In this document: piece by piece, positions 29,780 through 51,297 of the stretch
How the letters are laid out: each line of letters opens with the position of its first letter
How positions within the stretch are numbered: the first letter of the stretch is position 1
Assembly (NCBI GenBank): GCA_018992685.1
Contig: JACVGT010000001.1
Span: 100,458 to 164,457 of the forward strand
Origin: Theionarchaea archaeon
GTDB taxonomy: Archaea > Methanobacteriota_B > Thermococci > Methanofastidiosales > SZ-28-30
DNA: 64,000 bases
Direction: 5' to 3'
Notes under the pieces: model-generated
What the model was told of the DNA's origin: nothing
Seen by the model: only the letters and a program-made list of their open reading frames with translations
Database searches by the model: none
Position numbers and translations under genes: made by a program

Positions 29780-29909
29780 AGCAATCAGTACAGCGTATTC
29801 TATAGTGAACAGAATTTAAGGAGATAAAATACTTAAATCCTCAGGTATACAAGAAAAAACCTTTTTAAAACAGGGAGAAGTGTAGGTTACTAGAAAGGAG
29901 AAAGGTAAC

Positions 29910-30362: not shown

Positions 30363-30558
30363 TCGTCTGAATCTTGTTATCTTGAGAGTGAGGTGTCCAT
30401 TAAAGACACTTAAGGAAATGATAGGAAAGGAACCAAAGGACATTGGATTTCATTCATGTGGATTACTCTGAAGAATACATTTACATTCTTACAATTTATA
30501 GATTGTACAACGGCATACTACCCAAAAGGCTTTTAAAGTAAAAAGGAAAAGGAAATGT

Positions 30559-31146: not shown

Positions 31147-31415
31147 AATCTTGCGTTTGCTCCTTACCCTTTGCTGAGATTAGGTAGGTCATCAGTGTTG
31201 GCGAGTGGTTAGATAACTGTAAACCAGTGAGTTATTTTACAAAATGTGCAAATTTATCTGACTTTGATGTGTTATTTGAACCACTGGTAGGGGTATCCCT
31301 ATATTAATGCAATTCAAGCCTTATCAAAGAACATTAGTGGCCTTCATGATAGAGATACAGTCAATTCATTGATATGGAATAGCCTCCATTTGTGTACTGG
31401 GCTGTCTGTCTCACC

Positions 31416-32303
31416 TTATCCTAATTTTTTCAAAAATCCACAACCAAAAGAGGCATCAGGACCACAGCCTACCACAAATCCCAACCCTAGAATCCAGGCT
31501 GCTGCATCATTCATATCTTTGATTTCATACTCCACGATCCCCGTATATGAATGGAAGACCCTCTTATTGCTGCGGCTCGATCTTCTCTCCAATCTATGAT
31601 AGTGTTTCTCGCACCTGAGAATCCTTCCCTTACCCTTTACGTCCGGGACTGTTTCCCCACTCCCGTACTCATTAACGAGCCTGATGACTCTACTCCTAAT
31701 GAGAAAGAGAAGCCGTTCAAAAGAAAGAGGAAACTCATCCCCTGTAAAGGGTGTTTTGAACCCGACTGCAATTCTTTCACCCGTAATCCTTCCTACGTCC
31801 TCGATATCTCTTAATGACAGATTTCTCAAGTAGATTGTCTCTCCGTCGTACACATTCTTATCAGTAAACCCACATTCAATACTCTTAACATAGAACCTAT
31901 TTAGCCCCTCGTACCTCTGGGAGTATAATCCCTTTTTTCCCAAGAGGTTCATGCCCAGTATAACATGGGGCAAATACTTGGCGAAGTCTCCACAAAATAA
32001 GACATCCACTGATAGGGTAGCTTTCTCTTCAATTTCCATAGTTCTCCCAAAGAATGCAGGAATCAAAATGATTGGTTTAATGGGAGGGGCATATCCTCGT
32101 TCTGCTTCAATCTTTACGTATGTGTAAAAGAATAGACAGGTATCTTTCAATTCACAGGAAAGGCAGTCCTTATTATGGTCGGTGCAGATTGCTCTCCTCA
32201 AATTCTGCCCGAACCCTCCTCTGAATGTTGAACCCATCCAGTAGGGAAAGACTGCAGGAGTGGTGAACTCCAGATTCAGAGTCACTTTTGATAGTTGGAG
32301 CAT
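31416..32303 (-). CDS. cas6: CRISPR crRNA endoribonuclease Cas6
   Basis: GSTFRGGFG..L, C..C..C Zn motif and C-terminal G-rich loop GCGPDASFGCG; last gene of the effector operon. Confidence 0.88.
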   Translation of the reverse strand: MLQLSKVTLNLEFTTPAVFPYWMGSTFRGGFGQNLRRAICTDHNKDCLSCELKDTCLFFYTYVKIEAERGYAPPIKPIILIPAFFGRTMEIEEKATLSVDVLFCGDFAKYLPHVILGMNLLGKKGLYSQRYEGLNRFYVKSIECGFTDKNVYDGETIYLRNLSLRDIEDVGRITGERIAVGFKTPFTGDEFPLSFERLLFLIRSRVIRLVNEYGSGETVPDVKGKGRILRCEKHYHRLERRSSRSNKRVFHSYTGIVEYEIKDMNDAAAWILGLGFVVGCGPDASFGCGFLKKLG

Positions 32304-32324
32304 ATGATCCCCAGATAGTCTCTC

Positions 32325-34418: not shown

Positions 34419-35154
34419 TGAGATTCACCTCCTTTGGTATATTCTCCTCAATTCGTTGTAGAAAATCTTCCTGCAATTCATATGATCTGAGCTTCCTGAG
34501 ATCATCTTTCTTATAGGGGGCAAATCGATACTCCAATTTCAGAGAATTTGTGATAAATTCCTCAGGAAACACTACAAAAGTATTGTCATCTTCTTGCCCT
34601 AAGCTGACTTCTGAAAGCCTACCCATTTCGAGATCTTTTGCATGGAAAATATTGCTAAGAATGCAGCTGTCTATCCAGTCCGCCATCTTCAGACCATACC
34701 AGTCCTTGATAAAAGACACCATGTTGTTTTGCAGTTCATAGGAGTCTTTCGAGCTCTCAAAGATGAATCCTGTATTCTTGTATAAAACGTTGGTATTGAA
34801 CGGTGAATGATGGAGTCTAATCAGATTGAGAACATAAAAATTCTTGAAGTTCTTGACTCTTTCACCAAGGTCGAATTCCACCTCCCTAAAATTGGGATTC
34901 AAGAGAAAATCGGGAAATTGAGAACCATGTCCAGGGAACAAAAGTCCTTTTCCGGTAATAAGGGCTTGCAGCCGGAATTTTCTCCTCTTATATAAGTCAT
35001 GGATTCCGGCAGCCTCCTCCAGCCAGGATTTGTATCCAAAGAATCGATTGCAGGCAGAACCAACAATCTTTCTCAAGTTCTTATTATGGCTTTCTATGTC
35101 AACGAATATAAATTCGCTTCCCTTCTGGAATGATTTTGCTATACCATTATTCAT
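34405..35154 (-). CDS. cas3'': Stand-alone Cas3'' HD nuclease
   Basis: AKS...SH, AAGIHDLYK, GHG, IRLHH, MADWIDS motifs; start at ATG 35154 with GGAGGT SD. Confidence 0.8.
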   Translation of the reverse strand: MNNGIAKSFQKGSEFIFVDIESHNKNLRKIVGSACNRFFGYKSWLEEAAGIHDLYKRRKFRLQALITGKGLLFPGHGSQFPDFLLNPNFREVEFDLGERVKNFKNFYVLNLIRLHHSPFNTNVLYKNTGFIFESSKDSYELQNNMVSFIKDWYGLKMADWIDSCILSNIFHAKDLEMGRLSEVSLGQEDDNTFVVFPEEFITNSLKLEYRFAPYKKDDLRKLRSYELQEDFLQRIEENIPKEVNLIAGK

Positions 35155-36127
35155 GAACGACCTCCAGTTTCTGTAGGGTAGACAGTGGAATTCTCCATTT
35201 ATTTCCTGCATCCCCGTAATAGGGTCCCGAGGCTAGGGAATCATTGTTTCCGAAGATCCCTCTTTTGAATTTCCCCATTTGTCGACTGTAGTAGTAAACA
35301 CTCTCGGGTTTTCTTGGCTCATATACTTCGGTATGCTCAATATGTGGATCAAGGGGTATGATCACGCTCGATCGAAAAGACCCTTCCTTCTTTTCGAGTG
35401 ACATGACTTCTGATAACCCGGAAATAAATGCAAATCCTTCCTTGCCAATTTTGAATCCATAGTTATGTGTTTTATCAAGAAGGCTCAGCAAAGTTTTCTC
35501 ATGAGAGACAAGAAAGCCAGTGAAATCAGATGCAAGACAGAAATACCAATCCAAGGGCTGTCTGCGGCCCTCCTTCTTGAAAGTGCCGTAAGTTGGAATT
35601 CCTTGGTATCCTTCTCTCACTGATTTGAAAACGGTACGCTTGAAATACTTGCTCTGTCCTGATCTGTCATACTCTCTCTTGAACTTATCTAGATCATCTT
35701 TTTTCAGTTGTCCAACTTGTATTCTTTGCGCAATTAGATTCTTCACTGTTTCATCGCTAGGATCAAAGATATCCAATCCATCTGCTAAGGAATGCCCCTT
35801 TCCCAAATGTTGATATCCCATTCTAAAACTGCAGAAAATACTCGATCCAGAGCTCATAGAGTACGCTCCAAGGCTATTCAATCCTTCCGTATCTTCTTTT
35901 GTTTCTAGGATGTAGTACTCATCGATATCAGGGATTTCCGATCCAAATGCCCTTGGAGTAGGGAGCTCCTCATCATTTGCCAATCTCAATATTCGGTACA
36001 TGAACCCCGAGAATGTAGTAGGGGGTACAAACGAATAACTCGCAATAGTCTTGTACGATACCGGAACTTTTCTCACGGTTAGAGCTGATGTCGGTGTCAC
36101 CCGAATTGTCTTGAGGAATATTGTCAT
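35147..36127 (-). CDS. cas5: Cas5 (long, divergent)
   Basis: N-terminal SYSFVPPTTFSG motif and C-terminal G-loop KIGKEG; lies between cas7 and cas3''. Confidence 0.75.
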   Translation of the reverse strand: MTIFLKTIRVTPTSALTVRKVPVSYKTIASYSFVPPTTFSGFMYRILRLANDEELPTPRAFGSEIPDIDEYYILETKEDTEGLNSLGAYSMSSGSSIFCSFRMGYQHLGKGHSLADGLDIFDPSDETVKNLIAQRIQVGQLKKDDLDKFKREYDRSGQSKYFKRTVFKSVREGYQGIPTYGTFKKEGRRQPLDWYFCLASDFTGFLVSHEKTLLSLLDKTHNYGFKIGKEGFAFISGLSEVMSLEKKEGSFRSSVIIPLDPHIEHTEVYEPRKPESVYYYSRQMGKFKRGIFGNNDSLASGPYYGDAGNKWRIPLSTLQKLEVVHE

Positions 36128-36154
36128 ATCGGATCCTGCTGTTTCATTCTACAA

Positions 36155-37102
36155 TCACTTCTGGGAGGTGTCTTGCGACAACATTGAAGACTTGATTTCC
36201 TGGCCACCGGCCAGATTCCTGAGAAGCTCGTGTGCCTCCTCTCCCATGTACCTCTCAAATTTGTTCTGAACGCTAGTAGACTCTTTTGACTTGAATGTGA
36301 ATTCCTCTATTGCCTTCTTAATGTCAGTTATCATTGGACTTATGACGGGACGTTTTCCAAGGGGCTCAGTATATATATCCACTGTAAGGAGAGGTTCAGC
36401 CTTATCTTCTAGCCATTTGTGATGGAATACTTCTGCACCTTTTGGATGGCCAGCCCCAATCCTCTTAAGTGCTTCTAGGAAACTATAGGCCACCATCTGT
36501 GGTTCAGACATCTTCCTTTCGCCTTTTTCTGTATCCAGAAGCAAAGCGTGCCAGTACACTGGAAAAAGGGCACCTGCAACCACGTATTCTTTTTCATATG
36601 GCATGGGTTGAGAAGATCTATCTAAATGCTCCTTAGTAACGCCTCTGGTTTGTAGAAGTTTCTTAATCTCTTTCTTGCTATACTGTCCGATTTGTCCATT
36701 TATGATATAGGAAGGAGAACTGAGCCTTTGCTTGATCTCCGGTGACGCTTCTTGTATCGCTACCCCACCTGCTTGAAAAACTCTGCTTGCTATGGAGCCT
36801 TCTTCTTCTCCAGTTGTAGTCATCAATCCACCAAAGAGTTTGCAGAGATCGCACTTGCCGCATGTAGCTGGAATACCACATGATTTCGCTTGATCATCTC
36901 CTAAGTCATTAAGTTTCCACAATAAGGCCCTTCTGGCTACGCCTCTTACTTTTGTAGGACTCATGTAGAGTTTTTGAAGTTCTCCATCAATACCAGGTAC
37001 AGTGGCCATTTCCAGTCTATTTACATTGAGATCCTTGACATTCCCAAAGTGCAGTTCCTGTGTTGCCTCTATTATTGCATATATATCCATGTTCACTCTC
37101 AT
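36155..37102 (-). CDS. cas7: Cas7 backbone subunit, Csc2 (I-D)-like
   Basis: YMSPTKVRG..R, C....CGKCDLCKLFG, SRV, EYV..G..FP, KRIGA motifs. Confidence 0.78.
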   Translation of the reverse strand: MRVNMDIYAIIEATQELHFGNVKDLNVNRLEMATVPGIDGELQKLYMSPTKVRGVARRALLWKLNDLGDDQAKSCGIPATCGKCDLCKLFGGLMTTTGEEEGSIASRVFQAGGVAIQEASPEIKQRLSSPSYIINGQIGQYSKKEIKKLLQTRGVTKEHLDRSSQPMPYEKEYVVAGALFPVYWHALLLDTEKGERKMSEPQMVAYSFLEALKRIGAGHPKGAEVFHHKWLEDKAEPLLTVDIYTEPLGKRPVISPMITDIKKAIEEFTFKSKESTSVQNKFERYMGEEAHELLRNLAGGQEIKSSMLSQDTSQK

Positions 37103-37105
37103 TTA

Positions 37106-37615
37106 CTACATACCTCCTATTAGTTCTATTCTTTTTGCAATAAGTGCATACTTAACGCGAGTCATAAGATCAGAGAATTTTTTCTTCCTTCTTTTTGGAT
37201 CTGGTTCTTCCGCACTCAAGAGATCTTGAATATACATGTAGACTTTCAATATGTCATCATGGTACAGAAAGAGTCTTTCTCTTTCGTCGTAAGAAAATCC
37301 TCCTGATTCCTCGATCCATTTTTTTCTCTCTTTTTGTTCTTTCTCAAAATCTCCAAGTTTTTCTTCCTGGTGAATTTTGATCAGAAGATCTCTCAACAGC
37401 TTAAACTGCGTTTTGTTGCGAAAACTTTGTTCAATTGTTGTGTAATCTTGGCCTGTGATCTGCATGAGCCTATACAAGGCCTGCTCGGGGTTTTCAAGGT
37501 AGTAGGCTACCTTTCTTACTTCAGTCTTTAGGTCTTCAGTGTCTTTCCAAGTTTTCGGAAGGAATGCATCCAGAAGTAGGGCAGTTCCAAACACGATATC
37601 AGGTCTTTCTTCCAT
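37106..37615 (-). CDS. cas11: Putative internally translated Cas11 small subunit (169 aa, in frame within the large subunit)
   Basis: GAGGTGA SD (37621-37627) 5 nt before in-frame ATG 37615 (Met412, MEERPDIVFG...). Confidence 0.6.
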   Translation of the reverse strand: MEERPDIVFGTALLLDAFLPKTWKDTEDLKTEVRKVAYYLENPEQALYRLMQITGQDYTTIEQSFRNKTQFKLLRDLLIKIHQEEKLGDFEKEQKERKKWIEESGGFSYDERERLFLYHDDILKVYMYIQDLLSAEEPDPKRRKKKFSDLMTRVKYALIAKRIELIGGM

Positions 37616-38848
37616 TCCTATCACCTCATTTCGGATTAATTCAAAGATTCCATCTTCCAAGAGAAGCTCTCTTTTTCGTGGAGCCAGATTTCTGGCTAAA
37701 AGACTAACGCTAGGCAAGAGAGAAAAATACTCATCATTTATTATAGCCCAAAGAGCTTTCTTGAACTCTCTTTCTAAAGGATTAATGCCTCGTATTCTTC
37801 TGTTAAATACTTCATATCCTAGGATGGAATCGAAAGCCTTCATTGCCAGAATCTTTTTCTTTTTCAGAGGAGATGCTGTCACTGTATTGACAACATCAAA
37901 ATCAGGATCAATCAGGATATTCAATGGAATTCTTGAAGCTGCAAGATAAGTGAGTGCAGTTTTTCCGTAGCTTGAAACAAGCCTGCTGTGAAAGCTTATA
38001 GTAATGAGATTTCCGATGCTTATGCCAAAAATCCTATTGAAGAGGTGCGAAAGCTCTTCTTTTTCATAATTGGCCTCGAGAGTTATGCAATTGTTGGGAT
38101 TTCTAATAGGGGAAATATAGGAAGCAAATAAACATATTGGGCAAAAAGAGGCATTCTTATTTAGAATCCGGCTTTGAGGTCTTTGAGATGCGAATTCAAC
38201 ATATTCCTTCTTGACTTCGTAAGTTATTGATTCTCTTCCGCAAAACATGCATCCAGCTACAACATCTCCGAAACTCCCTATCTCTTTGGTTACAGGGAGG
38301 GGAATTTTCTCCTGTATTATTATATCCCTTAGTGAAATGGGAGATGGCAGATTGCGATATTGCTGTAATCGGTACACAGATTGAATCAGCGCCCATCTTG
38401 ATTGCAGGTAGAAATCATCATATGTAGATCCCAAGAATTCCCAGAACGATTGATCTAAGTCGATCGGCTCAAATGTTGAAATTTCCAATTCAGATCCCAG
38501 GTTTCTGATCACGGCAAAATAGTTCTTTTCAAGGTAGTGCAAGAAATCTTTCACAAGCAATTCTAAGGCAACATTGAGTATTGGATCCGAAGCTTGTGGT
38601 GGTGAGAGGACGTAATTGAAGAAATCATGTTCAATGATGTTTTCTCCTTGAGGCTGATTGAATAATATCCATCTCAGATACAAAGGTTCATCAAGAGTTT
38701 TCAATAGATTCTTAGCCATTGGAACATCTTCAGGTTTCAAGTTGTTCAGATTCTGGAAATCATTTTTCCATCTCGCATATTGCACAACTTCTTTATAACC
38801 CATTGATATCTCCTCTAAGCCAAGCAATAAGTGGGGTTTGAAATCCAA
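37106..38848 (-). CDS. Type I large subunit (Cas8-like, CXXC...CXXC) with C-terminal small-subunit domain
   Basis: First gene of the effector operon; CMFCG and FCPIC Zn motifs; helical C-terminus; no HD or GGDD motif seen. Confidence 0.65.
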   Translation of the reverse strand: MDFKPHLLLGLEEISMGYKEVVQYARWKNDFQNLNNLKPEDVPMAKNLLKTLDEPLYLRWILFNQPQGENIIEHDFFNYVLSPPQASDPILNVALELLVKDFLHYLEKNYFAVIRNLGSELEISTFEPIDLDQSFWEFLGSTYDDFYLQSRWALIQSVYRLQQYRNLPSPISLRDIIIQEKIPLPVTKEIGSFGDVVAGCMFCGRESITYEVKKEYVEFASQRPQSRILNKNASFCPICLFASYISPIRNPNNCITLEANYEKEELSHLFNRIFGISIGNLITISFHSRLVSSYGKTALTYLAASRIPLNILIDPDFDVVNTVTASPLKKKKILAMKAFDSILGYEVFNRRIRGINPLEREFKKALWAIINDEYFSLLPSVSLLARNLAPRKRELLLEDGIFELIRNEVIGMEERPDIVFGTALLLDAFLPKTWKDTEDLKTEVRKVAYYLENPEQALYRLMQITGQDYTTIEQSFRNKTQFKLLRDLLIKIHQEEKLGDFEKEQKERKKWIEESGGFSYDERERLFLYHDDILKVYMYIQDLLSAEEPDPKRRKKKFSDLMTRVKYALIAKRIELIGGM

Positions 38849-39053
38849 GTTATGATCCCTTCTTCTGAGAATTGCCTACATATAAAGTTTTCGATACAGT
38901 GATGAATGACCCAGACAAAGCTAGACAATTCTTCTTATACATTATTATTTGTACCAACAATTCTCTCTCCTGTAGCTAGAAGTGAGGAGAAACACGTTCT
39001 TTCTGAAGCTGATGGAATCAAAAAGTATATTAACATCTTTGAGAAATAGGCAC

Positions 39054-39335
39054 ATGTTGACTCTGGTGATTTATGATATTTCTGATGACAAGAAACGTAC
39101 TAAACTCGCTAAGAACCTCATACGCTACTCCTTGCAGAGAATTCAGTACTCAGCCTTTAAGGGAGACCTAAATTCCCATGATAGATTTGTTCTGGCCAAG
39201 GAAGTCAAAAAATATCTCAGTTGCGAAACAGACAGCATTTACATAATTCCCTTATGTCAACGGTGCTTTTCCCTCGTGGATATACTCTGTCAATCAGAAA
39301 GGTCCCTTCGAGATGAAGAAATAAAGGTGATATAA
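39054..39335 (+). CDS. cas2: Cas2
   Basis: LVIYDISDDKKR, RIQYSAF.G, DSIYIIPLC..C. Confidence 0.93.
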   Translation: MLTLVIYDISDDKKRTKLAKNLIRYSLQRIQYSAFKGDLNSHDRFVLAKEVKKYLSCETDSIYIIPLCQRCFSLVDILCQSERSLRDEEIKVI

Positions 39336-40159
39336 TGTATTTCCTTAACGACGTGGAAAAAAAGTACTTACTCAGCCATCTCCACAGAGTGACAAGAAAA
39401 GTTGGAGTTACAGACGAGTTGCGGGGCTGGTCTTGGTTTGAAGAACCTCTCAAGCCGTACTACGACATTACCCTGCCCATGTACATAATCTGTGGCAAAT
39501 ACTGTTCCACATCCAGGGACGTCTACCTCCGCTATGTACAAAAAGAACCTGGTGAGCCATCCCCCAGAATGGTCTTTGGGCAGACCATCCATTCACTGGT
39601 AGCTTCCACATTTAATTCCTTCTTGGATACCACAAATCCTCCTTTAGAATCTGAAGACCCAAGACTGCAGCAAGTATCAGAGTTTGTGGAGGCAGAAGCA
39701 AAGGCTGCCATCCTGAAGCAAAAATCCCAACAACCATATGCCACTGAGAGAGATATCCTCCACACCAGTCTACCATTCCTTGTGGAGCACAGAATATCAG
39801 GCGAGTTACTGGGACTCTCTGGGCTCTTGAGCATAGATGCTTTAGACTATCTTCACGGGATCCTCTTCGATCTAAAAGTAGGGAAGAAAAAGGACTTTTA
39901 CAGGTTATATTGCACAGGATATGCTCTGGTGTTTGAAAGTATTTACGAAGTACCTGTGGATGTTGGATGCACTGTCTATATTGATTTCCGTAATGATCGC
40001 TTATTCATTTCAAAAGACCTGTTCCACATTTCTGATAACCTCCGCAGCTGGTGGGTTGAAGAGCGTGACCATAAGATGGAGCTGGTTTCCACAAGTGAAG
40101 ACCCGGGGAAACCTCGAACGTGTCCTGAATCTTGCAGTTATTATAATACTTGCAGGTGA
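39335..40159 (+). CDS. csa1: Csa1 (type I-A Cas4-like nuclease)
   Basis: ELRGW.W...PL.P, YC.T.RD.YL, G..LGLS..L.ID, D.K, GYAL..ES, C..C.YY..C. Confidence 0.88.
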   Translation: MYFLNDVEKKYLLSHLHRVTRKVGVTDELRGWSWFEEPLKPYYDITLPMYIICGKYCSTSRDVYLRYVQKEPGEPSPRMVFGQTIHSLVASTFNSFLDTTNPPLESEDPRLQQVSEFVEAEAKAAILKQKSQQPYATERDILHTSLPFLVEHRISGELLGLSGLLSIDALDYLHGILFDLKVGKKKDFYRLYCTGYALVFESIYEVPVDVGCTVYIDFRNDRLFISKDLFHISDNLRSWWVEERDHKMELVSTSEDPGKPRTCPESCSYYNTCR

Positions 40160-40163
40160 TTGT

Positions 40164-41186
40164 ATGGAACGATTGGCTATTGATGGGTACGGGCGCTTCC
40201 TGGGAACTGAGCTCGGACAGATCGTGGTAAAGGAAAAAGGAAAAGTCATTGAACGGAAGAACCCTTTAACCTTGAGGCAAATCGTTTTCTCCGGGAAAGG
40301 TAGTATAAGCTCTGAAGCAGTCAGGCTTCTTGGAGCTCATGGAGTGGAAGTTCTGTTCCTGGATTTTGATGGTAGTGTGGTGGCACGGGTTTCTCCCCCC
40401 ATGTTGAAAACAGTAAGTGTGAGAAAGGAGCAGTACTTTGCCTATCAGGATGAAAGAGGAGTTCTCCTATCCAAAGAGTTTGTCAAGGCAAAAATGAGAA
40501 ACCAGATTGCTCTCCTGGGAGGACTGGCCAAACACAGGAAGGATACCCAGCCGGACATTGCATCTCAGATACAGGACATGAGAACCCATGTTGAAAAGCA
40601 GACCGAAACGCTTGAAAAGATATCAGGTTCATGCATTGACGAGGTAAGAGATGTAATTCAGGGGATAGAAGGGAGTGCATCAAGTCACTACTGGAAGGGG
40701 TTCTCTTTGATAATCCCGGAGGAATTCGCTTTTAGCACACGAAGTGGGAGGTATGCTGCTGATCCCGTGAATAGTATGCTCAACTATGGGTATGGAATAC
40801 TCCAGGGAGAGGTTTTGAGGGCCATTCATTTTACAGGGTTAGACCCTTACGCAGGGTATTTACATGTGGACCGGTCGGGAAGGAGTAGTCTCGTTCTAGA
40901 TTTCATGGAAGAGTTCAGGCAACAGACTATTGATAAGGTGGTAGTCCGGTTAGTTACCCGAGGGCAGGTCAGAGATAAAGATTTTGAGATGAAAGAAGGA
41001 TTGTGCAGAATAAGAAAAGAGGGCCGCAAGCTCTTGTTAAAGGAAATTCTGGAAAGATTTGAGGATTTTGTGAGGATAGAGAACCAGAGAATTGCCTGGT
41101 GCAATGTAATATTAAAGCAGGCTCGGTTGATAACTACGTTTCTGAGAGGCCAGGGAGCGTATACGGGATTTTATCTTCGGTGGTAA
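40164..41186 (+). CDS. cas1: Cas1 integrase
   Basis: GIEG.A...YW, DPVNSMLNYGY, GLDPYAGYLH, SLVLDFMEEFR; AGGTGA SD before ATG 40164. Confidence 0.95.
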   Translation: MERLAIDGYGRFLGTELGQIVVKEKGKVIERKNPLTLRQIVFSGKGSISSEAVRLLGAHGVEVLFLDFDGSVVARVSPPMLKTVSVRKEQYFAYQDERGVLLSKEFVKAKMRNQIALLGGLAKHRKDTQPDIASQIQDMRTHVEKQTETLEKISGSCIDEVRDVIQGIEGSASSHYWKGFSLIIPEEFAFSTRSGRYAADPVNSMLNYGYGILQGEVLRAIHFTGLDPYAGYLHVDRSGRSSLVLDFMEEFRQQTIDKVVVRLVTRGQVRDKDFEMKEGLCRIRKEGRKLLLKEILERFEDFVRIENQRIAWCNVILKQARLITTFLRGQGAYTGFYLRW

Positions 41187-41187
41187 G

Positions 41188-41763
41188 ATGGAGGCCGATA
41201 TTGCAGTTTCTGATGTGGTTCAATTCATGTATTGCCCACGGAAGGTGTATTTCTACAAGGTGCTGGGGTTACCCATGGTGGACAGGAAGAAAATGACTTA
41301 CGGGAGGGATGAGCACGAGAGAGAACACCGAAGGGTGAAGGAGAGGAAGCGTATCTATGGGATTGAGAAAGACCAGATCAAGAAAGTTCAGCACGGGGTT
41401 TTCCTTGTTGATGAGGACGTTGGCTTGTATGGACAAATTGATACTGTTGTGGAGCTGCAGGACGGGAGTGTTATCCCTGTGGATGTGAAATACTCTGATT
41501 ATTCGGGTGTGTTCAAGAACTGGAAAAAGCAGCTTTTGGCATATGCTCTACTCCTGGAAAGGAAATCTGGTGTTAAGGTTAGGAAGGGGTTATTGTATTT
41601 CCCAAAACAGAGGAAAAAAGTGTTTGTTGAATTGAGTGCAGAGGATAAGGAGTTTTTTCTGAAGGATATTGAGAGAATTCGTGGAATGATAAAGTCAGGG
41701 AAGATGCCGCGGGGACGAGACCGTTGCGGATATTGTGAGATGAAGAAGTACTGTAAAGAGTAA
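41188..41763 (+). CDS. cas4: Cas4
   Basis: YCPR, GQIDT, PVDVK, QLLAYALLLE, CGYC..K.YC (Fe-S ligands). Confidence 0.92.
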   Translation: MEADIAVSDVVQFMYCPRKVYFYKVLGLPMVDRKKMTYGRDEHEREHRRVKERKRIYGIEKDQIKKVQHGVFLVDEDVGLYGQIDTVVELQDGSVIPVDVKYSDYSGVFKNWKKQLLAYALLLERKSGVKVRKGLLYFPKQRKKVFVELSAEDKEFFLKDIERIRGMIKSGKMPRGRDRCGYCEMKKYCKE

Positions 41764-41915
41764 GGGTTAGTTAGGTAGTGTGGAATTCTGTGAGCTAGAT
41801 GTGCAGCGTGCCCCTCTTTATAAAGGGTGCTCCGACTTTTCGATAGGCACGCGGGGGTGCAAAAAAGGAGGTACCACAAGGCTTTTAAGGGCTGATTGAG
41901 TAGATGAGGGTGGCT
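41764..41915 (+). promoter_or_regulatory. CRISPR leader
   Basis: Non-coding region between cas4 and repeat 1; TATA-like CTTTTAAG about 27 nt before the first repeat. Confidence 0.8.
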
Positions 41916-44900
41916 GTTTCAAAGGTCATACTCAGAAAACGAGGATTGAAAGGTGACCTATCAAACTCAACCCACAATTCCTGTATCTGTTTCAAAGGTC
42001 ATACTCAGAAAACGAGGATTGAAAGACATGGTAGAGAATCTCATTGTAAGTAATGTCTCGGCGTTTCAAAGGTCATACTCAGAAAACGAGGATTGAAAGG
42101 GAGTTGTATTCAACATATACAAGATGGGCGCTTCCAGTTTCAAAGGTCATACTCAGAAAACGAGGATTGAAAGACTACTCCGCTGAATGTATAGTGTTCG
42201 TCTGAGAAATGTTTCAAAGGTCATACTCAGAAAACGAGGATTGAAAGGTCTGGGTCGAAATTTATCCACTCCTGGATGAAAGCGTTTCAAAGGTCATACT
42301 CAGAAAACGAGGATTGAAAGCATAACTCTCTTTTGTGCTCTTGAGCCATTCCTTTGTTTCAAAGGTCATACTCAGAAAACGAGGATTGAAAGTGCTTCAT
42401 GGTCATGGTAAGTCCTACTTCGGTCGTTGTTTCAAAGGTCATACTCAGAAAACGAGGATTGAAAGATTGATTTAACTTTCATTATCGTCAATTTATCACC
42501 ACGTTTCAAAGGTCATACTCAGAAAACGAGGATTGAAAGGAGTAGGACTCGAAAAACGAGGATTGAAATGAAAAGGTTTCAAAGGTCATACTCAGAAAAC
42601 GAGGATTGAAAGCCGTATCACCGGGTCTTTTCCCTCTTCCTGATGGATTGTTTCAAAGGTCATACTCAGAAAACGAGGATTGAAAGACATTTTTATGAAT
42701 TTTTCAAAGACCGGCGTCAATATGTTTCAAAGGTCATACTCAGAAAACGAGGATTGAAAGATGGCAGGAACAGCTTTCAGAATGGCTATAGCACAGTTTC
42801 AAAGGTCATACTCAGAAAACGAGGATTGAAAGGCAGCTCTTCGAGCTTCTTTAACTGGTACAATGCCATGTGTTTCAAAGGTCATACTCAGAAAACGAGG
42901 ATTGAAAGTTATCATGCTATCCCTATGATTCCGTCCTTATAAAGGTTTCAAAGGTCATACTCAGAAAACGAGGATTGAAAGTTTCCAGTACTACTTCTCT
43001 GAGGGTCATTGAGGGATGTTTCAAAGGTCATACTCAGAAAACGAGGATTGAAAGCACCTCTCACTCATAACAGTCCTCGTAGTAATCGCGTTTCAAAGGT
43101 CATACTCAGAAAACGAGGATTGAAAGGAATTATATTTCATTAATACACCTCACTTTTCAATAGTTTCAAAGGTCATACTCAGAAAACGAGGATTGAAAGG
43201 CCTTTTTAAGTTCTTCTTTGTCTTCTGGGAAAACATGTTTCAAAGGTCATACTCAGAAAACGAGGATTGAAAGCTACGTACTGATACGACCTCAAGGGTT
43301 GTATCGAATGTTTCAAAGGTCATACTCAGAAAACGAGGATTGAAAGTCTTCTACGCGAGTATGGATGACGAACTTGGCTGTGTTTCAAAGGTCATACTCA
43401 GAAAACGAGGATTGAAAGCAATGACGAAAGCTCTTACCGGAGAATACGGAGAGTTTCAAAGGTCATACTCAGAAAACGAGGATTGAAAGATTTGTAAGAG
43501 AGATCCAGCCAGTTCCTAATTCTCTGTTTCAAAGGTCATACTCAGAAAACGAGGATTGAAAGAAGTGTGTCCTCACTGGCAATAGTTCTTAGAGCATCGT
43601 TTCAAAGGTCATACTCAGAAAACGAGGATTGAAAGCACGACTACCTGGACGAACAATGACGGTTCCACCAACGTTTCAAAGGTCATACTCAGAAAACGAG
43701 GATTGAAAGACCTTCAGCTGCTCCAGTGATCTCTCCATTTCCTGGGTTTCAAAGGTCATACTCAGAAAACGAGGATTGAAAGATGAAGAGGGTACATATT
43801 ACTGTTATTATTCTGCGTTTCAAAGGTCATACTCAGAAAACGAGGATTGAAAGTAATTATTGGGGCAGTCGCAGCGGTCTATATATTGGTTTCAAAGGTC
43901 ATACTCAGAAAACGAGGATTGAAAGACTTCTGGTAGGAAAGCGATACCGCGTCCTCTTCTTGTTTCAAAGGTCATACTCAGAAAACGAGGATTGAAAGAT
44001 CTATAATTATGAGCAATAAAAATGCGCTAAAGTGGGTTTCAAAGGTCATACTCAGAAAACGAGGATTGAAAGATCTTGTCCGCGTGAACCGTGCGAAGTT
44101 CCTCCGTCGTTTCAAAGGTCATACTCAGAAAACGAGGATTGAAAGACGGTCACAATTACGTTTTCTGCACCAACTGCCTTTGTTTCAAAGGTCATACTCA
44201 GAAAACGAGGATTGAAAGAAATATGCCGTGTATGCACATCCCAACCATTCATGTTTCAAAGGTCATACTCAGAAAACGAGGATTGAAAGTTTCGTAACAA
44301 AGCGAAGCAACGCTATTATCGTCTCGTTTCAAAGGTCATACTCAGAAAACGAGGATTGAAAGAAATTCAAGACGATGCAGAAGCGTACTACATAGAGTGT
44401 TTCAAAGGTCATACTCAGAAAACGAGGATTGAAAGGCCTACTACCACACCTTTCACATACCCATACCCAGAAGTTTCAAAGGTCATACTCAGAAAACGAG
44501 GATTGAAAGGTCATCTCTACGTCAGCAAAAGAACACCCTTTGCATGTTTCAAAGGTCATACTCAGAAAACGAGGATTGAAAGGGACTCGGTGGGGAAGTT
44601 TGACGAGTCCTACGGGAAGGTTTCAAAGGTCATACTCAGAAAACGAGGATTGAAAGTTTATCATCTTCGCTGCACCGTCAAGCCACTCACCGTTTCAAAG
44701 GTCATACTCAGAAAACGAGGATTGAAAGGGACTACATTCACACCTAAAGCTTTTCCTGATCATGTTTCAAAGGTCATACTCAGAAAACGAGGATTGAAAG
44801 GAATCCTCCCAGAACTCTTCAATGCAGGTGACTTCAGTTTCAAAGGTCATACTCAGAAAACGAGGATTGAAAGGATCCATAGCCTCTCAGGATCTGTGCT

Positions 44901-46339
44901 GCCTCTTTGTTTCAAAGGTCATACTCAGAAAACGAGGATTGAAAGTTTATATGCTTCGTCAATCATCTCAATCCTCCTCGTTTCAAAGGTCATACTCAGA
45001 AAACGAGGATTGAAAGTCAGAAAAAATCCCGGAATCGTAGTTATTCTCCAGAGTTTCAAAGGTCATACTCAGAAAACGAGGATTGAAAGCAGTCCTCCCA
45101 CATCTCCGGTACGCGAGGGTCTATCGTTTCAAAGGTCATACTCAGAAAACGAGGATTGAAAGACAGTCTGGAGGAGCTACAAAAAAGCCACTACCAGAGT
45201 TTCAAAGGTCATACTCAGAAAACGAGGATTGAAAGTGTACCATCTTGCACCTATTTCTGTTGCGATCTCGAAGTTTCAAAGGTCATACTCAGAAAACGAG
45301 GATTGAAAGTCTGTTATGCAGTCTAAGAACTCGTTGATGGAACAGTTTCAAAGGTCATACTCAGAAAACGAGGATTGAAAGAAGAATTCCCCTTGCCTCT
45401 CTGGCGGCAATGATGAAGTTTCAAAGGTCATACTCAGAAAACGAGGATTGAAAGTTAAGGCAGTGGAATATATCTATGTGTTTGTGTACGTGTTTCAAAG
45501 GTCATACTCAGAAAACGAGGATTGAAAGATTTTCCTTAATAGGAAATAGATTTTCGAGTAAGATTGTTTCAAAGGTCATACTCAGAAAACGAGGATTGAA
45601 AGATATTGTGGCAGCAGCAATCGATGTGGAGTGAATTAAGTTTCAAAGGTCATACTCAGAAAACGAGGATTGAAAGCCGTCATATAAATCCCTTACCTGA
45701 TCCCACTCCATGTGTGTTTCAAAGGTCATACTCAGAAAACGAGGATTGAAAGCTCCCTGGTTACTATCATGCTTATGTATTCACACATGTTTCAAAGGTC
45801 ATACTCAGAAAACGAGGATTGAAAGTAACTGGAATATGTTCTCTTTCTGGCATGGAATACGGTTTCAAAGGTCATACTCAGAAAACGAGGATTGAAAGTA
45901 AGCTTCGTATTCATAAAAGCAGCAAACAATAGAAGTTTCAAAGGTCATACTCAGAAAACGAGGATTGAAAGTGTTCATTCTGGCTCCCCGGGTAGAAAGA
46001 GAGGAGTGTTTCAAAGGTCATACTCAGAAAACGAGGATTGAAAGAATTCCACTTCATCCAGATGGTCCATCCACCAGGTAGGTTTCAAAGGTCATACTCA
46101 GAAAACGAGGATTGAAAGCAAATGGAAGCACAACTTCGCCAGCATCACAGAATAGTTTCAAAGGTCATACTCAGAAAACGAGGATTGAAAGTTTTGATTT
46201 GACATTTTCACTCACCTTGTGATATTCGGTTTCAAAGGTCATACTCAGAAAACGAGGATTGAAAGACTCACCTGACGACATGAAGGCCTTTGAGAAATGT
46301 GCGTTTCAAAGGTCATACTCAGAAAACGAGGATTGAAAG
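41916..46339 (+). CRISPR. CRISPR array, 61 x 37-bp repeat GTTTCAAAGGTCATACTCAGAAAACGAGGATTGAAAG, 60 spacers of about 34-39 bp
   Basis: Counted by hand; repeats appear invariant including the last; the ATTGAAAG 3' end and leader position give + orientation. Confidence 0.98.
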
Positions 46340-46464
46340 CTTGGTGTAGGTTCTATCAATTCAAGGTCTCCGTGATGTGGCCACTGCTTATTTTTGTCCA
46401 ATGCCAGTTTGCCAATATCATGTAGCATTGACGCTACTAAACCGTCAGTTGCTTCAGTGCCCAA
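46306..46464 (-). pseudogene. Truncated cas10-like N-terminal HD fragment running into the last CRISPR repeat
   Basis: Read by hand: TTG-GTEATDGLVASMLHDIGKLALDKNKQWPHHG...; SD-like GGATGTGA and BRE/TATA-like CGAAACATATTTAAG upstream. Confidence 0.6.
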
Positions 46465-46639
46465 TTGATTCACATCCTTAGTCGATCATGATATTGATTT
46501 CTTAAATATGTTTCGGTTTGTATGACTGAAAATTGGAGAGATCTCTTTCTAGCAGGGTTTGTGTCAGTGGGGTGTTTGCTATTATTTGATGGTTAGAGAC
46601 GTGATTAAAATACTCATGAATCAGGTCGCTAATGGCGTG

Positions 46640-46815
46640 GTCTTTTCAATTGAAGAGTGGAATGGGGTTGTCTGGACAAGTTGACACTGCATCGACTCCA
46701 CATTATGAGAATATTGTTCCCGTCAATGTGAAATACTCTAATTATTCCAGCGTGTTCAAGATCTGGAACAAGATCACTGCGAATATTGTGAGACGAAGGA
46801 GTATTGTAAAGAAGT
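46640..46815 (+). pseudogene. cas4 remnant with internal deletion
   Basis: GLSGQVDT..IVPVNVKYSNYSSVFKIW matches Cas4 GLYGQIDT..VIPVDVKYSDYSGVFKNW, then jumps to DNA resembling the cas4 3' end. Confidence 0.75.
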
Positions 46816-46862
46816 TGGGGTTGGTCGGGCTAGTGTGGAATTTCCTTGACCTTCAACTCGAA

Positions 46863-46966
46863 AGCGTGCCCCTCTTTATAAAGGGTGCTCCGACTTTTCG
46901 ATAGGCACGCGGGGATGCAAAAAAGGAGGTACCACAAGGCTTTTAAGGCATGATTGAGTAGATGAG
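46863..46966 (+). repeat. Orphan copy of the CRISPR leader (101/104 identical to 41805-41908), no array behind it
   Basis: Direct sequence comparison. Confidence 0.85.
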
Positions 46967-47874
46967 TATCATCTCATCACCTTTGAAATGGAATTCCAGT
47001 TCTTACCTGTAATATCTTGTAGTTAAGTGTTTATAAGGTTTTCGATTTCAGATTTTAAATTGTGGATGGATTGATTGCATGAATTGCCCTCATGTTCCCG
47101 TTAATTATCTAGAGTAGCGACTTCAGCAGGAAAAAGTACTATTTGTTGAGAATGGTGTCTTCTGTAGTATTTTCCTCAATGAGAACACATATTCTTTCAG
47201 TCCGATCTCCATACAAAAGGTGAAACCTGTTAGTGCTCTGGATTTCGAATGCGCAAATTGCTCTCTAATTATAAATTGTATATGAAAAGGTTTAGAACAG
47301 TGCAATTCTTTACTTTGAATAAGAAATCGAAAGAAATGCAGGTAGCAGGTGAGAAGTATGAAGTTGGGACTTCAGAAGTTTTCATATAGATTCGCTGAGC
47401 AGGTACTAAACAGCAGACCACGTTCTTATGTATTTTTCTCAAGGCACCCACGACATGTATAACTTCGCCTGAATGACTCGCTTGATTACTTCTTATGTGG
47501 TTCTTCACCTCGGCATTTCTATCCCCCAGAGTCTGAAAAAGTATGGCTCTCTCTATCAGAATTGATACGCACCATTAATATTGGCAGAAGGGTAGCCATC
47601 ATGGGAGGTTCATACAGATCACTGATTATGCGCTTGTCAAATCTCTGGGATGGATGTCATTCTCTTTTCACTTTCTTTTTTCGCTTTGTGGACGATTTCT
47701 TCAAAGGTTTTTCCTTCTAGACATTCGGCAAATTCTTCAGTATCCATGAGTTCACTACAATGTTCTATAGAGCGAAGTCTTATATAATCTGCCCATCTGC
47801 TGTTCTGCCAGCAATTCATCAAACAAGGATTCTGCATAGATAGCTTTTTATGTTTCTTTACACTACGCATCATC

Positions 47875-48117
47875 ATGGAAACTGTTGAACTCAACTTGAC
47901 AGAAGAAGAGTCTAGGCAAATCGATGCTTATGTTAAGCGAGCTGGTTATTCCTCCCGGTCTGAATTCATGAGGGAATTCCTACTCCATGTAACAGAACCC
48001 GAACTCTCTGAAAAGGTCTTAAAAGAAATTGCCGTTGCCCGGAACCAGAAGCAAAGAGGAGAAGTTTTCTCCCTCGAAAGAAATCAAGAAGCAGTTGGGG
48101 CTTTGAATGAGTTATGA
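47875..48117 (+). CDS. Ribbon-helix-helix (CopG/NikR-like) antitoxin, apparent frameshift near the 3' end
   Basis: METVELNL...IDAYV...GYSSRSEFMRE; the expected tail EEIKKQLGL* lies in a shifted frame. Confidence 0.7.
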   Translation: METVELNLTEEESRQIDAYVKRAGYSSRSEFMREFLLHVTEPELSEKVLKEIAVARNQKQRGEVFSLERNQEAVGALNEL

Positions 48118-48283
48118 TCTCACTTTTTCAGCATTAGCTTCAAAGAAACTCAGAAAATTGGATAAGAAAAAGGCTTTGCTCATTATCAAAAAACTGGAGG
48201 AAACAGCCAGTTCTCCAGCTCGTTATTTGGAACCGTTGCGTAGAATTGACGCATACAGGGTGAGGGCAGGGGAGCCAGGATAA
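48107..48283 (+). pseudogene. Truncated RelE/ParE-family toxin
   Basis: MSYDLTFS..A.K.LRKLD....I..KL....P....PL....YRVRAG, then stops where DYR would be expected. Confidence 0.7.
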
Positions 48284-48348
48284 TGAAGCATGAGCCAGGA
48301 TAATGAGGGGCTCCATCAGATCAAGACGTGATTGGAGAACGTGATACC

Positions 48349-49257
48349 ATGAGAACAAAGAAGACCCTGCTGGTTGTGTGGGTTACCCTCTTTCTATGCG
48401 GATTCGTCTTAATTTCCTATCTGAGACAAGAGCAATTTGAAGAACACCTGGAGAATGAAATAATTGATATACAAGAAGAAATGGAAACTGTCTCATCTGA
48501 GCTTCAGGACGAATGTGAAACTCTTGACAGGAGTAGCCCTGAAGATGTTCTGCTTTATCTTGGACTGACGACTTATCCCTATTCTGGCGATTATTTCCTT
48601 GATTTCAGCGAATATATGAAGAAAAAACCGAGAGGTAATCTCTTCTTGGGCACCTTCCTCACACAGGCAGATGAAGGTGCTTTCCTAGAGGGTTGTTTCA
48701 CACTTCGTGTATCGTATTTTAATGTACGTGACTACTGGTATAGTGAGACTGAACCAGGCAAGATATTTCTGGATTCCTGCCAGCAATATGAGAAAAAGAA
48801 CCAGGGCTTTTCCTGGGAAGAATTCAGGAACTCAGATGATTTTGGACAATTTCTCAATGAACTCTGCAATTTCATAGAAGACAAAGAGGATATCAGCCTC
48901 CAAGAGACATATCAGCAGATTGAGGATTTGGGAAAGATAAAGACGGGAAATATATATCGAAAGGCTTTACTACAGTCTTATATCTACCTGGCAGAGACCA
49001 GCTACAGTAAGTACCAGGAACACAAACAAGACGACTTTATGAAGGCACTCGTTGACGCCGAAGTGGTCTATACGGTCTATGATTTCTCTCAGAACTGGGA
49101 TACTAAGCAAATAGCTTTCACAACTCTAGAACCATTTCAAAGAGACACTTTTTTTATGCATAGTAGTGTTCTCGATATCGGATTTGCCTTTATAGTTTCA
49201 ACTTTGATTGTGATTGCAATCTGGATCGTTTTCAGTGAATTGAAAAAGGGAGAGTGA
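48349..49257 (+). CDS. Hypothetical membrane-anchored protein (N- and C-terminal TM)
   Basis: Long ORF with hydrophobic ends and an acidic soluble middle. Confidence 0.7.
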   Translation: MRTKKTLLVVWVTLFLCGFVLISYLRQEQFEEHLENEIIDIQEEMETVSSELQDECETLDRSSPEDVLLYLGLTTYPYSGDYFLDFSEYMKKKPRGNLFLGTFLTQADEGAFLEGCFTLRVSYFNVRDYWYSETEPGKIFLDSCQQYEKKNQGFSWEEFRNSDDFGQFLNELCNFIEDKEDISLQETYQQIEDLGKIKTGNIYRKALLQSYIYLAETSYSKYQEHKQDDFMKALVDAEVVYTVYDFSQNWDTKQIAFTTLEPFQRDTFFMHSSVLDIGFAFIVSTLIVIAIWIVFSELKKGE

Positions 49258-49318
49258 AGTTCAGAGAATGATCTCTATGGTACTAGTTTCTCTGTACTTG
49301 TTTGACCTCTTTCACTGA

Positions 49319-49610
49319 TCAACCACACTCAGACAGTGTATTATAGACTGTCCACATTAAGAAGCATATAATGTAGAACATGAAAAAATAGTACATAAGT
49401 TTTCTGTACTTTTCTGCGGATCGTCTTTCATATCTGAAGAAGAAATGAGCAAATAGCAACCAAGCGGCATTGAAAATCACGAAAAATAATATTCCCTGGC
49501 AGCTCAGGAAGAAATTATAGAAGAAGATACCGCCCAGAAACGTAGATCGCAGCCAAAAGCAGAACTTTCAGGGTGGATTTCATCATGTTTCTTGCATTTT
49601 CTTGCTTCAC
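49319..49610 (-). pseudogene. Small membrane protein gene with one frameshift
   Basis: GGAGGTGA SD + GTG 49610; hydrophobic reading continues in a shifted frame (FLGGIFFYNFF...LMWTVYNTLSECG*). Confidence 0.45.
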
Positions 49611-49737
49611 TTTTTCACCTCCTTTATGTTCTTAGTTCTCGGGACAGGAGGTATCATCCCACAGGATGATACCCCGAGCTCTCCCAGTTTCAATCGATCA
49701 GGGGTAGAGGACAGAACTCAAACCGTTCAGTGATAAC

Positions 49738-51297
49738 CTATTCTCCGGGAGTGTTGGCGAACGGAAAGAATGTTGGCAAGATACGGAGGAGAGCGTCTTT
49801 TCCTGCTTTGTCCAGAAAAGACAACTCAATCCGGACTATTCCATCATCTGAGATCTGAAGATCAACTCTTTTCTTCTGTATATTCACACGTGTGTTTTGA
49901 ATGGTATCCCACGGAATCACCCGGGGTTTCTTCAGGATAGTATTAAATAACGTTATGGAATTGCGCGTTATCAGAAAATAAGGTGTTTTGGCGAACCAGA
50001 ACCCTACGAGAAGATTCAAAAAAGGGAAGATGAGATACAAGAACCCAGCTGAATGATTCCTGCCGTATACCTCAAGAAACCCACAAAACATGAAAAGGGC
50101 TCCAGATACAAACCATATGGTGAAAATAGTAGAAGATCTCCTGAATTCGTGTATTTCCAGACCTTTATCTGCCGTATTCTCTATGTACCTTTGCAGGGGA
50201 TGGATTCCTGTTAGGAAAAATGCTCCCAGCACAGATAGCACAGCTAGTATCCCATAGTAGTATTCAAGTGGAGGGCGGGGGGAAAGTGTCCGAAAAGGGA
50301 TCCCCTCAAGGCTACAGCAAAATATGTCGCAATTGCCGTTTCTACAGCACTGCCACACCACTGTATCACCATAAACTGCAGGGTGCAATATGGTCTCCCT
50401 GCTTGAAGAAATGTAGAGCAGTCTGTTTGTGGCAAGATCATACCCAAAGAGGTCGCTCCTAGGGCGAGAGTCCGAATCAAAATCCGTTTCAGCCCATACG
50501 ATAGTATTCCCTTCAAAATCTATTTCCATACACTTATACACAATCTCAATCTCAATCTCACTACCCGTGGAGACAGTGTATACACCCACAAGCCTATCAC
50601 CGTGAGCTCGTCCCAGAAAGACAACCCTATCACCACTGGGCACGATTTGGTCGAAACGTGGGTCTTCACAGACACGAAACTCCCGGTTGTCGGAAAGATC
50701 ACATCCATAGCCAACATCCTTGCCATTTCTTTCGTCTATCCATACCACAACGTCCCCGGAAACTCGAGGCCACCTTTGATTATATTTGTTCTTGGTTATA
50801 CGAATCTCCTCATTACGAGAAAGATCATATCCATAGATTTCCCAGTTTGTATAGTGCCGGTCGTCCTGCCAGACCACCAAGGTTCCCGAAATATCGGGAT
50901 GGTTCTGATTTGATGAGTCCCAGGTGATACGGAATTCTTCCCCAGTTTCAAGGTTGAACCCATAAATATCATCATTGCCATTCCTGGTGTCTACCCAGAC
51001 GACGTACGACCCAGAGATTTCAGGGTTAGTCTGATCATTCGGATCATCTGTAATCTGAACCTCCTCTCCAGTCTCAAGGTTGAACCCATAGATGTCCCTG
51101 TTGCCATTTCTGGTGTCTACCCAGACGACGTATGACCCAAAAATTCGAGGAGCGTATTGATCATTCTCATCGTGGGTAATCTGAACCTCAGAAGAGCTCT
51201 CCAGAAAGCCACACATGACAGAATTCAAGAGCAGAAGGACCACAACGGAGACGAGCCCAACCCGTATGATTTTGACAGCCGTGCTTGCCTCACTCAT
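49738..51297 (-). CDS. Archaeal beta-propeller-repeat cell-surface protein with C-terminal TM helices and PH-like domain
   Basis: Repeated Q..P.I.G..VVW.D.RNGN.DIYG..L..GEE..IT motif. Confidence 0.85.
   Translation of the reverse strand: MSEASTAVKIIRVGLVSVVVLLLLNSVMCGFLESSSEVQITHDENDQYAPRIFGSYVVWVDTRNGNRDIYGFNLETGEEVQITDDPNDQTNPEISGSYVVWVDTRNGNDDIYGFNLETGEEFRITWDSSNQNHPDISGTLVVWQDDRHYTNWEIYGYDLSRNEEIRITKNKYNQRWPRVSGDVVVWIDERNGKDVGYGCDLSDNREFRVCEDPRFDQIVPSGDRVVFLGRAHGDRLVGVYTVSTGSEIEIEIVYKCMEIDFEGNTIVWAETDFDSDSRPRSDLFGYDLATNRLLYISSSRETILHPAVYGDTVVWQCCRNGNCDIFCCSLEGIPFRTLSPRPPLEYYYGILAVLSVLGAFFLTGIHPLQRYIENTADKGLEIHEFRRSSTIFTIWFVSGALFMFCGFLEVYGRNHSAGFLYLIFPFLNLLVGFWFAKTPYFLITRNSITLFNTILKKPRVIPWDTIQNTRVNIQKKRVDLQISDDGIVRIELSFLDKAGKDALLRILPTFFPFANTPGE

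Follow-up and report, generated by a model that had tools for sequence, protein, structure and literature searches.

A spacer that reads as a diverged CRISPR repeat in a type I-B-like array of a Theionarchaea archaeon

The ninth spacer of a CRISPR array in the genome of a Theionarchaea archaeon is, by its sequence, a genuine member of a family of CRISPR repeats and not a decayed copy of the repeat that flanks it. We studied this element, spacer 9, within a stretch of 64,000 nucleotides (nt) of contig JACVGT010000001.1 (assembly GCA_018992685.1, contig positions 100,458 to 164,457); this whole stretch is called the window, and coordinates count from its first base. Derivation from a repeat related to, and different from, that of the host array is very probable if all possible carriers are pooled, as an original prediction for this DNA had proposed. 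We consider it likely that spacer 9 was gained by ordinary Cas1-Cas2 acquisition from DNA bearing a homologous type I-B-like array of the same repeat family, whatever the carrier of that array. Spacers are commonly taken to record viruses and plasmids, and spacer 9 is best regarded as an unusual variant of this ordinary thing, known from a single instance, whose donor was not found.

Anatomy of spacer 9

The array, the spacer and its parts are as follows.

41916-46339, forward strand: CRISPR array of 61 identical 37-nt repeats and 60 spacers, repeat 3' end ...GAGGATTGAAAG
42503-42539, forward strand: host repeat upstream of spacer 9, perfect
42540-42575, forward strand: spacer 9, 36 nt, ninth of 60 from the leader
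42540-42569, forward strand: repeat-like part of spacer 9, the counterpart of positions 8-37 in the 37-nt family repeat
42548-42560, forward strand: predicted 4-base-pair (bp) stem CTCG/CGAG with loop AAAAA, the family mini-hairpin just upstream of the Cas6 cut position
42562-42569, forward strand: ATTGAAAT, read from the sequence as the counterpart of the 8-nt 5' handle ATTGAAAG of CRISPR RNA (crRNA)
42570-42575, forward strand: GAAAAG, 6 nt that the alignment leaves without a counterpart in the repeat
42576-42612, forward strand: host repeat downstream of spacer 9, perfect

Spacers in this array are 34-39 nt long with a mode of 36 nt (27 of 60), which is also the length of spacer 9. Both repeats that flank it are identical to the other 59, and the period of repeats and spacers is unbroken. 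An ungapped alignment of the spacer's first 30 nt with the final 30 nt of the host repeat (offset 7) gives identity at 22 of 30 positions and a longest exact run of 16 nt. The original prediction had described the sequence at 42540-42575, its 22/30 match to the repeat 3' end, the perfect 16-nt run, the normal spacer length and the intact flanking repeats, and all of these were reproduced.

The resemblance is exceptional among the spacers of this organism. When the 139 spacers of the genome were compared with its three repeat types on both strands, no other spacer had an exact run longer than 9 nt. Spacer 9 itself has runs of 11 and 10 nt to the two other genomic repeat types because all of these share a common 3' handle. 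Not one of 12,000 shuffled spacers had a run longer than 12 nt, and by our own arithmetic a 16-nt run is expected at about 2e-7 per spacer. A single copy of the complete 36-mer is present in the 3.03-Mb assembly, even if as many as 8 mismatches are tolerated, and the 16-mer is confined in the genome to the 61 repeats, spacer 9 and two repeats of a mini-array on a different contig.

At its 3' end the host repeat carries ATTGAAAG, the usual 8-nt crRNA handle, and the array is therefore read on the forward strand. In spacer 9, positions 19-30 are GAGGATTGAAAT, which agrees with the family pattern ATTGAAA(G/T) after GAGG; natural family repeats that end in T, as the repeat-like part of spacer 9 does, are found at two loci (L030 and L050). 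The hairpin CUCG-AAAAA-CGAG has a predicted folding energy of -4.6 kcal/mol (z -2.3), and the 110-nt context of the spacer folds no better than shuffles (z -0.68). Hairpin and handle are thus both present, and the family-invariant 5' GTTTCA is absent, the spacer beginning at repeat position 8. An internal Cas6 cut site is possible, and such a cut, if it occurs, would fall between 42561 and 42562. Some Cas6 enzymes that act on weakly structured repeats also bind the repeat 5' end. With hairpin and handle kept and the conserved 5' end lacking, spacer 9 offers a natural way to test which portion of a repeat is required by Cas6. The terminal GAAAAG would be donor sequence from beyond the donor repeat, either a donor spacer or a flank.

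A family of related repeats

Metagenome contigs were scanned for two spaced copies of the 16-mer, which returned 25 loci. Every one of the 25 is an array whose 37-nt repeats, of the type GTTTCA..., belong together with the host repeat in a single family. Two variants, a and b, lie one base from the host repeat (b ends in T); the others are c (GTTTCAACGATCGGACTCGT...), d (GTTTCAACGAGAGGACTCAT...), e, f and g. A BLAST search with the array against relatives added the repeats of one same-genus and one same-family genome (G002 and G003), which have TGAGG instead of CGAGG. The form common to the family is a 37-nt GTTTCA...CTC-loop-GAGGATTGAAAG.

Spacer 9 is closer to some of these sister repeats than to the repeat of its own array (22/30). 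It matches variant c at 24/30 positions, including 23/24 over guide positions 6-29, and variant d at 23/30, locally 23/25. Its GGACTCG, which lies outside the 16-nt run, is in register with variant c. Eight positions set spacer 9 apart from the host repeat; at each of them another family member has the same base as spacer 9, and none of the eight falls on the 15 positions that are invariant among the ten members compared. With eight mismatches placed at random over 30 positions, a clean run of at least 16 nt is expected in 0.5% of cases. This non-random pattern of differences argues for a functional sister repeat rather than a decaying copy. Structure points the same way as sequence: the 3-bp stem of the family (repeat positions 16-18 with 26-28; pairs 16-28, 17-27 and 18-26) is kept in spacer 9, and a further pair, 19-25, is G-C in spacer 9 and variant c, G-T or A-T in two close relatives, and unpaired in the host repeat.

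Membership was also recovered with a covariance model built from eight family repeats, with the host repeat and spacer 9 left out. Run over the whole 64-kb window with filters off, the model found the 61 repeats at 61.8 bits and matched 42542-42569 over model positions 10-37 at 29.2 bits (E 1.6e-4). This was the sole non-repeat match in the window; the next best non-repeat site reached 9.4 bits. Across the genome, with 150 of 749 first-look candidates scored, the model gave 65 matches at E<=1, namely 64 repeats and spacer 9. The family model, the closer sister repeats, the differences confined to family-variable positions, and the preserved stem and handle together bear out the proposal that spacer 9 originated in a related but different repeat.

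The family is not among the curated Rfam families. Searches of Rfam with the host repeat and spacer 9 gave nothing at the gathering score (39-45 bits), with E values of at least 3.6; both were weak matches to CRISPR-DR families (DR47, 15 bits; DR9, 12.7 bits). Arrays of types d and e lie directly behind cas1 and cas4 genes whose products have 50-52% and 47-48% amino acid (aa) identity to those of the window. The gene order there is the same as in the window, in clearly different organisms. These neighboring genes indicate that related uncultured archaea have homologous type I-B-like modules and that the family belongs to these.

When 185,579 species genomes were screened for ACGAGGATTGAAA in two spaced copies, 25 loci emerged. 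By record title these are mainly Asgard arrays (Freyarchaeota, Jordarchaeia and Hodarchaeota), together with unrelated bacterial repeats. The Asgard 37-nt repeat has the form CTTGCAAAAG.AGTTCCTCAGTAACGAGGATTGAAAG, with large arrays at L003, L014, L016, L022 and other loci; it has the stem and the last 13 nt in common with the window family and differs in its 5' half.

Where spacer 9 may have come from

The array stands next to the following genes and leader.

38982-41763, forward strand: adaptation genes cas2, csa1 (cas4-like), cas1 and cas4, assigned with NCBIfam
41764-41915, forward strand: leader of 152 nt between cas4 and the first repeat, containing a TTTATAAA box
31416-38848, reverse strand: effector genes cas8b, cas7b, cas5b, a 268-aa open reading frame without an assigned family, cas3 and cas6, assigned with PADLOC
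31416-32303: cas6

The adaptation genes (NCBIfam E values: Cas2 3.8e-19, Csa1 8.2e-55, Cas1 4.9e-86, Cas4 1.4e-36) and the effector genes (PADLOC E values: Cas7b 1.4e-101, Cas5b 3.6e-26, Cas8b 2.1e-07, Cas6 9.9e-55, Cas3 7.1e-65, the Cas3 core being matched by NCBIfam as well) are intact, and with the leader and the array they read as a complete type I-B-like system. In the account that we favor, foreign DNA carrying a homologous array would have entered the cell, most likely as a CRISPR-cas module borne by a plasmid or an integrative element, or as chromosomal DNA of a neighboring archaeon. Cas1-Cas2, with Cas4 and Csa1, would have excised 36 bp made up of donor repeat positions 8-37 and 6 nt of the next donor spacer and inserted them at the leader end, and eight later acquisitions would have shifted the new spacer to slot 9. 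Cleavage by Cas6 within the host repeat on either side would then yield a crRNA whose guide includes 30 nt of foreign repeat, and this crRNA, loaded in Cas8b-Cas7-Cas5 with Cas3, would recognize every repeat unit of the donor. Every unit would be a target because only six nt, at the end distal to the protospacer-adjacent motif (PAM), vary between units, and type I systems tolerate mismatches at that end. A spacer of this kind would thus be a record of contact with foreign CRISPR DNA in which one guide has many targets in the donor array. If such spacers are common, they would bear on how CRISPR-cas modules compete after horizontal transfer and on why arrays get lost, as well as on the handling in spacer databases of "repeat-like" spacers, which pipelines tend to throw out as errors of annotation.

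Targeting of the host's own repeats is not expected. They mismatch the spacer 9 guide at positions 1, 2, 5, 6, 7 (in the seed), 12, 13 and 30, and mismatches over most of the seed make self-targeting unlikely. The suggestion that the spacer might partly pair with the host repeats has to be restated: spacer 9 has the same sense as the repeats, so the two RNAs cannot pair, and what the guide meets is repeat DNA with 8 mismatches. Variant c mismatches the guide at positions 1, 2, 3 and 5, which suggests that the true target is a family member that has yet to be sampled.

In most respects spacer 9 is like any spacer of a type I-B system with Cas4-assisted adaptation: the flanking repeats are intact, the length is modal, a leader and cas1-cas2-cas4 adjoin, and the sequence is unique in the genome. 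It differs in that its content is 30 nt of CRISPR repeat rather than a virus or plasmid gene, and in that neither a protospacer nor a PAM was mapped. In Haloferax, mating between species is known to lead to the acquisition of spacers against chromosomal genes of other archaea. Spacer 9 would be comparable in that DNA of related cells is the source, and differs in that the described cases target genes; this is a plausible route by which a neighbor's array repeat could be sampled. Phrase and term searches of the literature gave no report of a spacer made from the repeat of another array, a weak negative that does not prove the case to be unpublished.

Several results weigh against acquisition from a homologous array. 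The best natural repeat still differs from spacer 9 at 6 of 30 positions, and the invariance of repeat positions 21-36 is partly circular, these being the search word by construction: 6 of the 10 members compared were retrieved with the 16-mer, and only G002 and G003 came from BLAST. The case is also a single one. When 641 unique spacers from 51 related array entries were compared with 26 family repeats, the longest run was 13 nt, near chance by our own arithmetic, so that none of the 641 is like spacer 9. Exact searches found no match in viral contigs to the 36-mer or to the 5' 19-mer of spacer 9, and none in viral, genome or metagenome contigs to the spacer 9-specific 22-mer ACTCGAAAAACGAGGATTGAAA. 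The 30-mer with up to 3 mismatches, searched in 61 relatives, and the 24-mer with up to 2 mismatches, searched in all 133 genomes of the class, were found in the organism's own genome only. Over 42300-42800, reads of X1, the only public run found (DNA, share 0.06), covered repeats only, continuing from them into other spacers, and did not cover spacer 9; no RNA run with the sequence was found. Finally, spacer 56 (45972-46007) matches the organism's own genome at 30/36 positions (C8:67033-67068), the sole protospacer found and an imperfect one, with TTC upstream, whereas the corresponding place in the family repeats is CAA or AAC; one imperfect match is too little to define a PAM.

Searches with the whole array were equally unproductive with respect to a donor: BLAST gave no match in 50,697 phage records or 72,556 plasmids, and against 41 relatives it returned repeat matches and short weak ones only. 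No window spacer other than spacer 9 matches any locus that was fetched. All these collections are samples, and the absence of a protospacer from them does not imply that none exists. The carriers named in the original prediction (a virus or plasmid mini-array, a solitary repeat unit or another host array) found no support, with no exact or near match in the viral, genome and metagenome collections and with no array or solitary copy of the family in viral contigs. A check of the kind that it proposed found the spacer once in the host assembly and gave no match inside a mobile-element mini-array or solitary repeat.

Run X1, which is labeled as a freshwater sediment metagenome, contains the same 37-nt repeat joined to spacers that differ from those of the window, and a related array is therefore present in another sample.

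Among the other possible donors, a virus or plasmid that carries a solitary repeat unit, acting as a decoy like an RNA anti-CRISPR, or a mini-array that mimics the family, is unlikely to be the source, and yet this idea fares better than the remaining alternatives. Both kinds of element are documented: solitary repeat units in viral genomes, which usually follow a promoter and imitate the repeat that the virus's host carries (Camara-Wilpert et al. 2023, PMC10651486), and virus-borne mini-CRISPR arrays, which show that mobile elements can carry arrays and that these have a role in conflicts (Medvedeva et al. 2019, PMC6858448). Like the solitary units, spacer 9 is a repeat look-alike outside the usual place, and such a unit could serve as a protospacer donor. 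However, spacer 9 sits in a chromosomal host array beside cas genes, and a decoy is expected to copy the host repeat closely, whereas the agreement here is only 22/30. A mini-array could likewise be a donor, yet viral contigs contained no array of the GTTTCA family. That viruses do carry arrays with this handle is evident from a 93.5-kb IMG/VR contig (L027:1360-1900, reverse strand) with an array of five units and a degenerate sixth whose repeat ends in ...ACGAGGATTGAAAT. The L027 repeat, however, matches spacer 9 at 19/30 positions and is unlike it upstream of the last 14 nt, and the fetched flanks gave no cas match to window proteins. The blank results for the 36-mer, the 22-mer, the 5' 19-mer and the whole array in viral, phage and plasmid collections also tell against a mobile donor of this sort.

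What the viral contigs do contain are single words. The 3' 19-mer of spacer 9 had one viral match, at a ribosome-binding site followed by ATG and unlike spacer 9 upstream. The family signature CTCNNAAAACGAGGATTGAAA, with two free positions, had two, in a terminase large-subunit gene and a ribonucleotide-reductase gene, and the 5' half of the repeat had one, in coding DNA; these three family-word matches thus all lie inside coding genes. At all four sites the neighboring bases are unlike spacer 9 or the repeat. Such sites show that ordinary genes contain short pieces of the repeat 3' end about as often as chance would have it, and the four matches do not explain spacer 9 because it is repeat-like over 28-30 nt, in register. 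In the five viral records with repeat-like words, no window spacer matched beyond those words.

One such record is a 21.5-kb IMG/VR contig whose terminase large-subunit gene has 22 nt identical to the host repeat 3' end, including the handle (L053:2001-2022). By our own arithmetic chance alone would give about 0.01-0.03 matches of this type in the collection, and L053 is matched by no window spacer.

A further possibility, which we regard as improbable, is that the donor was the lineage's own second array, with a repeat of the spacer 9 type and a diverged adaptation module, and that autoimmunity then selected for deletion of this array. It draws on a feature downstream of the present array.

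46620-46966, forward strand: orphan cas4 3' end and leader core, with no array after them

Here the final ~190 nt of cas4 recur in diverged form (46620-46812; 41-82% aa identity in pieces), followed at 46863-46966 by a second leader core that BLAST aligns to the first over 104 nt with 97.115% identity (3 mismatches); the two remnants lie 280-630 bp beyond the last repeat. The homology of the leader copy ends 8 nt before the expected start of a first repeat, and a 10-nt inverted piece of the repeat 5' end lies at the break (46979-46988, reverse strand). These remains suggest that a second adaptation module and leader once joined the locus, so that a second CRISPR module may have left its scar here, and past entry of foreign CRISPR modules at this locus is plausible. 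For a second array of the lineage's own speak the orphan fragment and leader without a following array, the inverted piece at the break, and the last repeat of the present array, which is perfect rather than degenerate and makes the old array end look truncated; in relatives, moreover, two arrays with variants c and d stand on the same contig, one such contig being of 32 kb and another of 301 kb. Against it, only 3 of 37 positions separate c from d, as against 8 of 30 between spacer 9 and the host repeat, and a near-identical leader copy is ill-suited to a module as diverged as the cas4 fragment. No trace of a spacer 9-type repeat was found in the tail or in the rest of the genome, nor did any strain turn up in which a second array is intact. 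There is no direct tie between spacer 9 and the scar.

The same remains allow a stronger form of acquisition from a homologous array, in which CRISPR is set against CRISPR: the array would have been immunized against a homologous CRISPR-cas module that had entered this very locus, and the rival array, each unit of which the guide would have targeted through its repeat, would have been destroyed or deleted, leaving the truncated cas4 and orphan leader as its scar. We hold this to be improbable. Were it true, repeat-derived spacers would let resident CRISPR systems exclude incoming ones.

An origin in place, through a partial repeat duplicate that decayed, a recombination scar or an assembly error, is very improbable. 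It has in its favor that the reads of X1 do not cover spacer 9; against it, the 61 repeats are identical, the slot is of modal length and is the ninth from the leader, hence young, and the eight changes all spare the stem and the handle and all use bases of sister repeats. In addition, the unique words that flank the spacer occur nowhere else in the assembly, so that there is no pair of sequences from which a chimeric join could arise. A decayed array repeat in particular was rejected: the period is unbroken, the slot is 9 of 60 rather than at the trailer end, and the differences are non-random.

The least credible explanation is a chance likeness of an ordinary mobile-element protospacer, such as a gene start with the ribosome-binding site GAGGA and then ATG, for although the last 19 nt of spacer 9 do stand at the gene start of one viral contig, and viral terminase and reductase genes have 19-22 nt identical to the host repeat 3' end, the viral sequences upstream of these common words are unlike spacer 9 or the repeat, and chance would have to account for the 16-nt run, the in-register GGACTCG and kept stem beyond it, and the E value of the family model in the window.

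CreA-type antitoxin RNAs are a further kind of diverged repeat-like sequence that gives crRNA-like RNAs. A crRNA-like regulatory mini-array of the CreA type, which would lie between genes of the cas operon and have a short pseudo-spacer matching a promoter, was rejected, as spacer 9 lies in the main array and no repeat-like element was found in 28000-41915 or 46339-50000 at thresholds of at least 22/37 or at least 19/30. Diverged repeat-like elements that give crRNA-like RNAs are reported to be enriched near cas6 in type I-B loci, where they are intergenic between cas genes and flank short pseudo-spacers (2023, PMC10120712). Spacer 9 differs from the elements described there in being full-length and in the main array, and the cas locus of the window is without a repeat-like element.

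Other arrays and repeats in the genome

The window also contains, at 22139-23956, a tandem repeat with a period of 402 nt (4.5 copies, 81% identity) that is probably a repetitive protein-coding region.

Besides the array of the window, the genome has three further arrays. One, the mini-array on contig C22 (3161-3343), has two spacers and three copies of the 37-nt repeat of the window array, of which the last carries a single C>T change; it is without a leader copy and is followed by what we read from its sequence as a small ribbon-helix-helix-like gene pair. The other two are on contig C26 (19254-22980 and 32357-33772), with 57 and 22 copies of a 30-nt repeat. The two C26 repeats differ by 2 nt, the second ending in T, and they belong to a distinct family that has in common with the window family only the ...AGGATTGAAA(G/T) end. 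Two identical adjacent spacers in the first C26 array represent a duplication.

The own-genome site matched by spacer 56 is the end of a gene that is conserved in several relatives, and the flanks differ there. A spacer of a C26 array also matches the organism's own genome at 30/36 positions, 700 bp from the spacer 56 site (G000 C8:67033-67768). The systems of the window and of C26 thus both seem to remember an element with a homologue of this C8 region.

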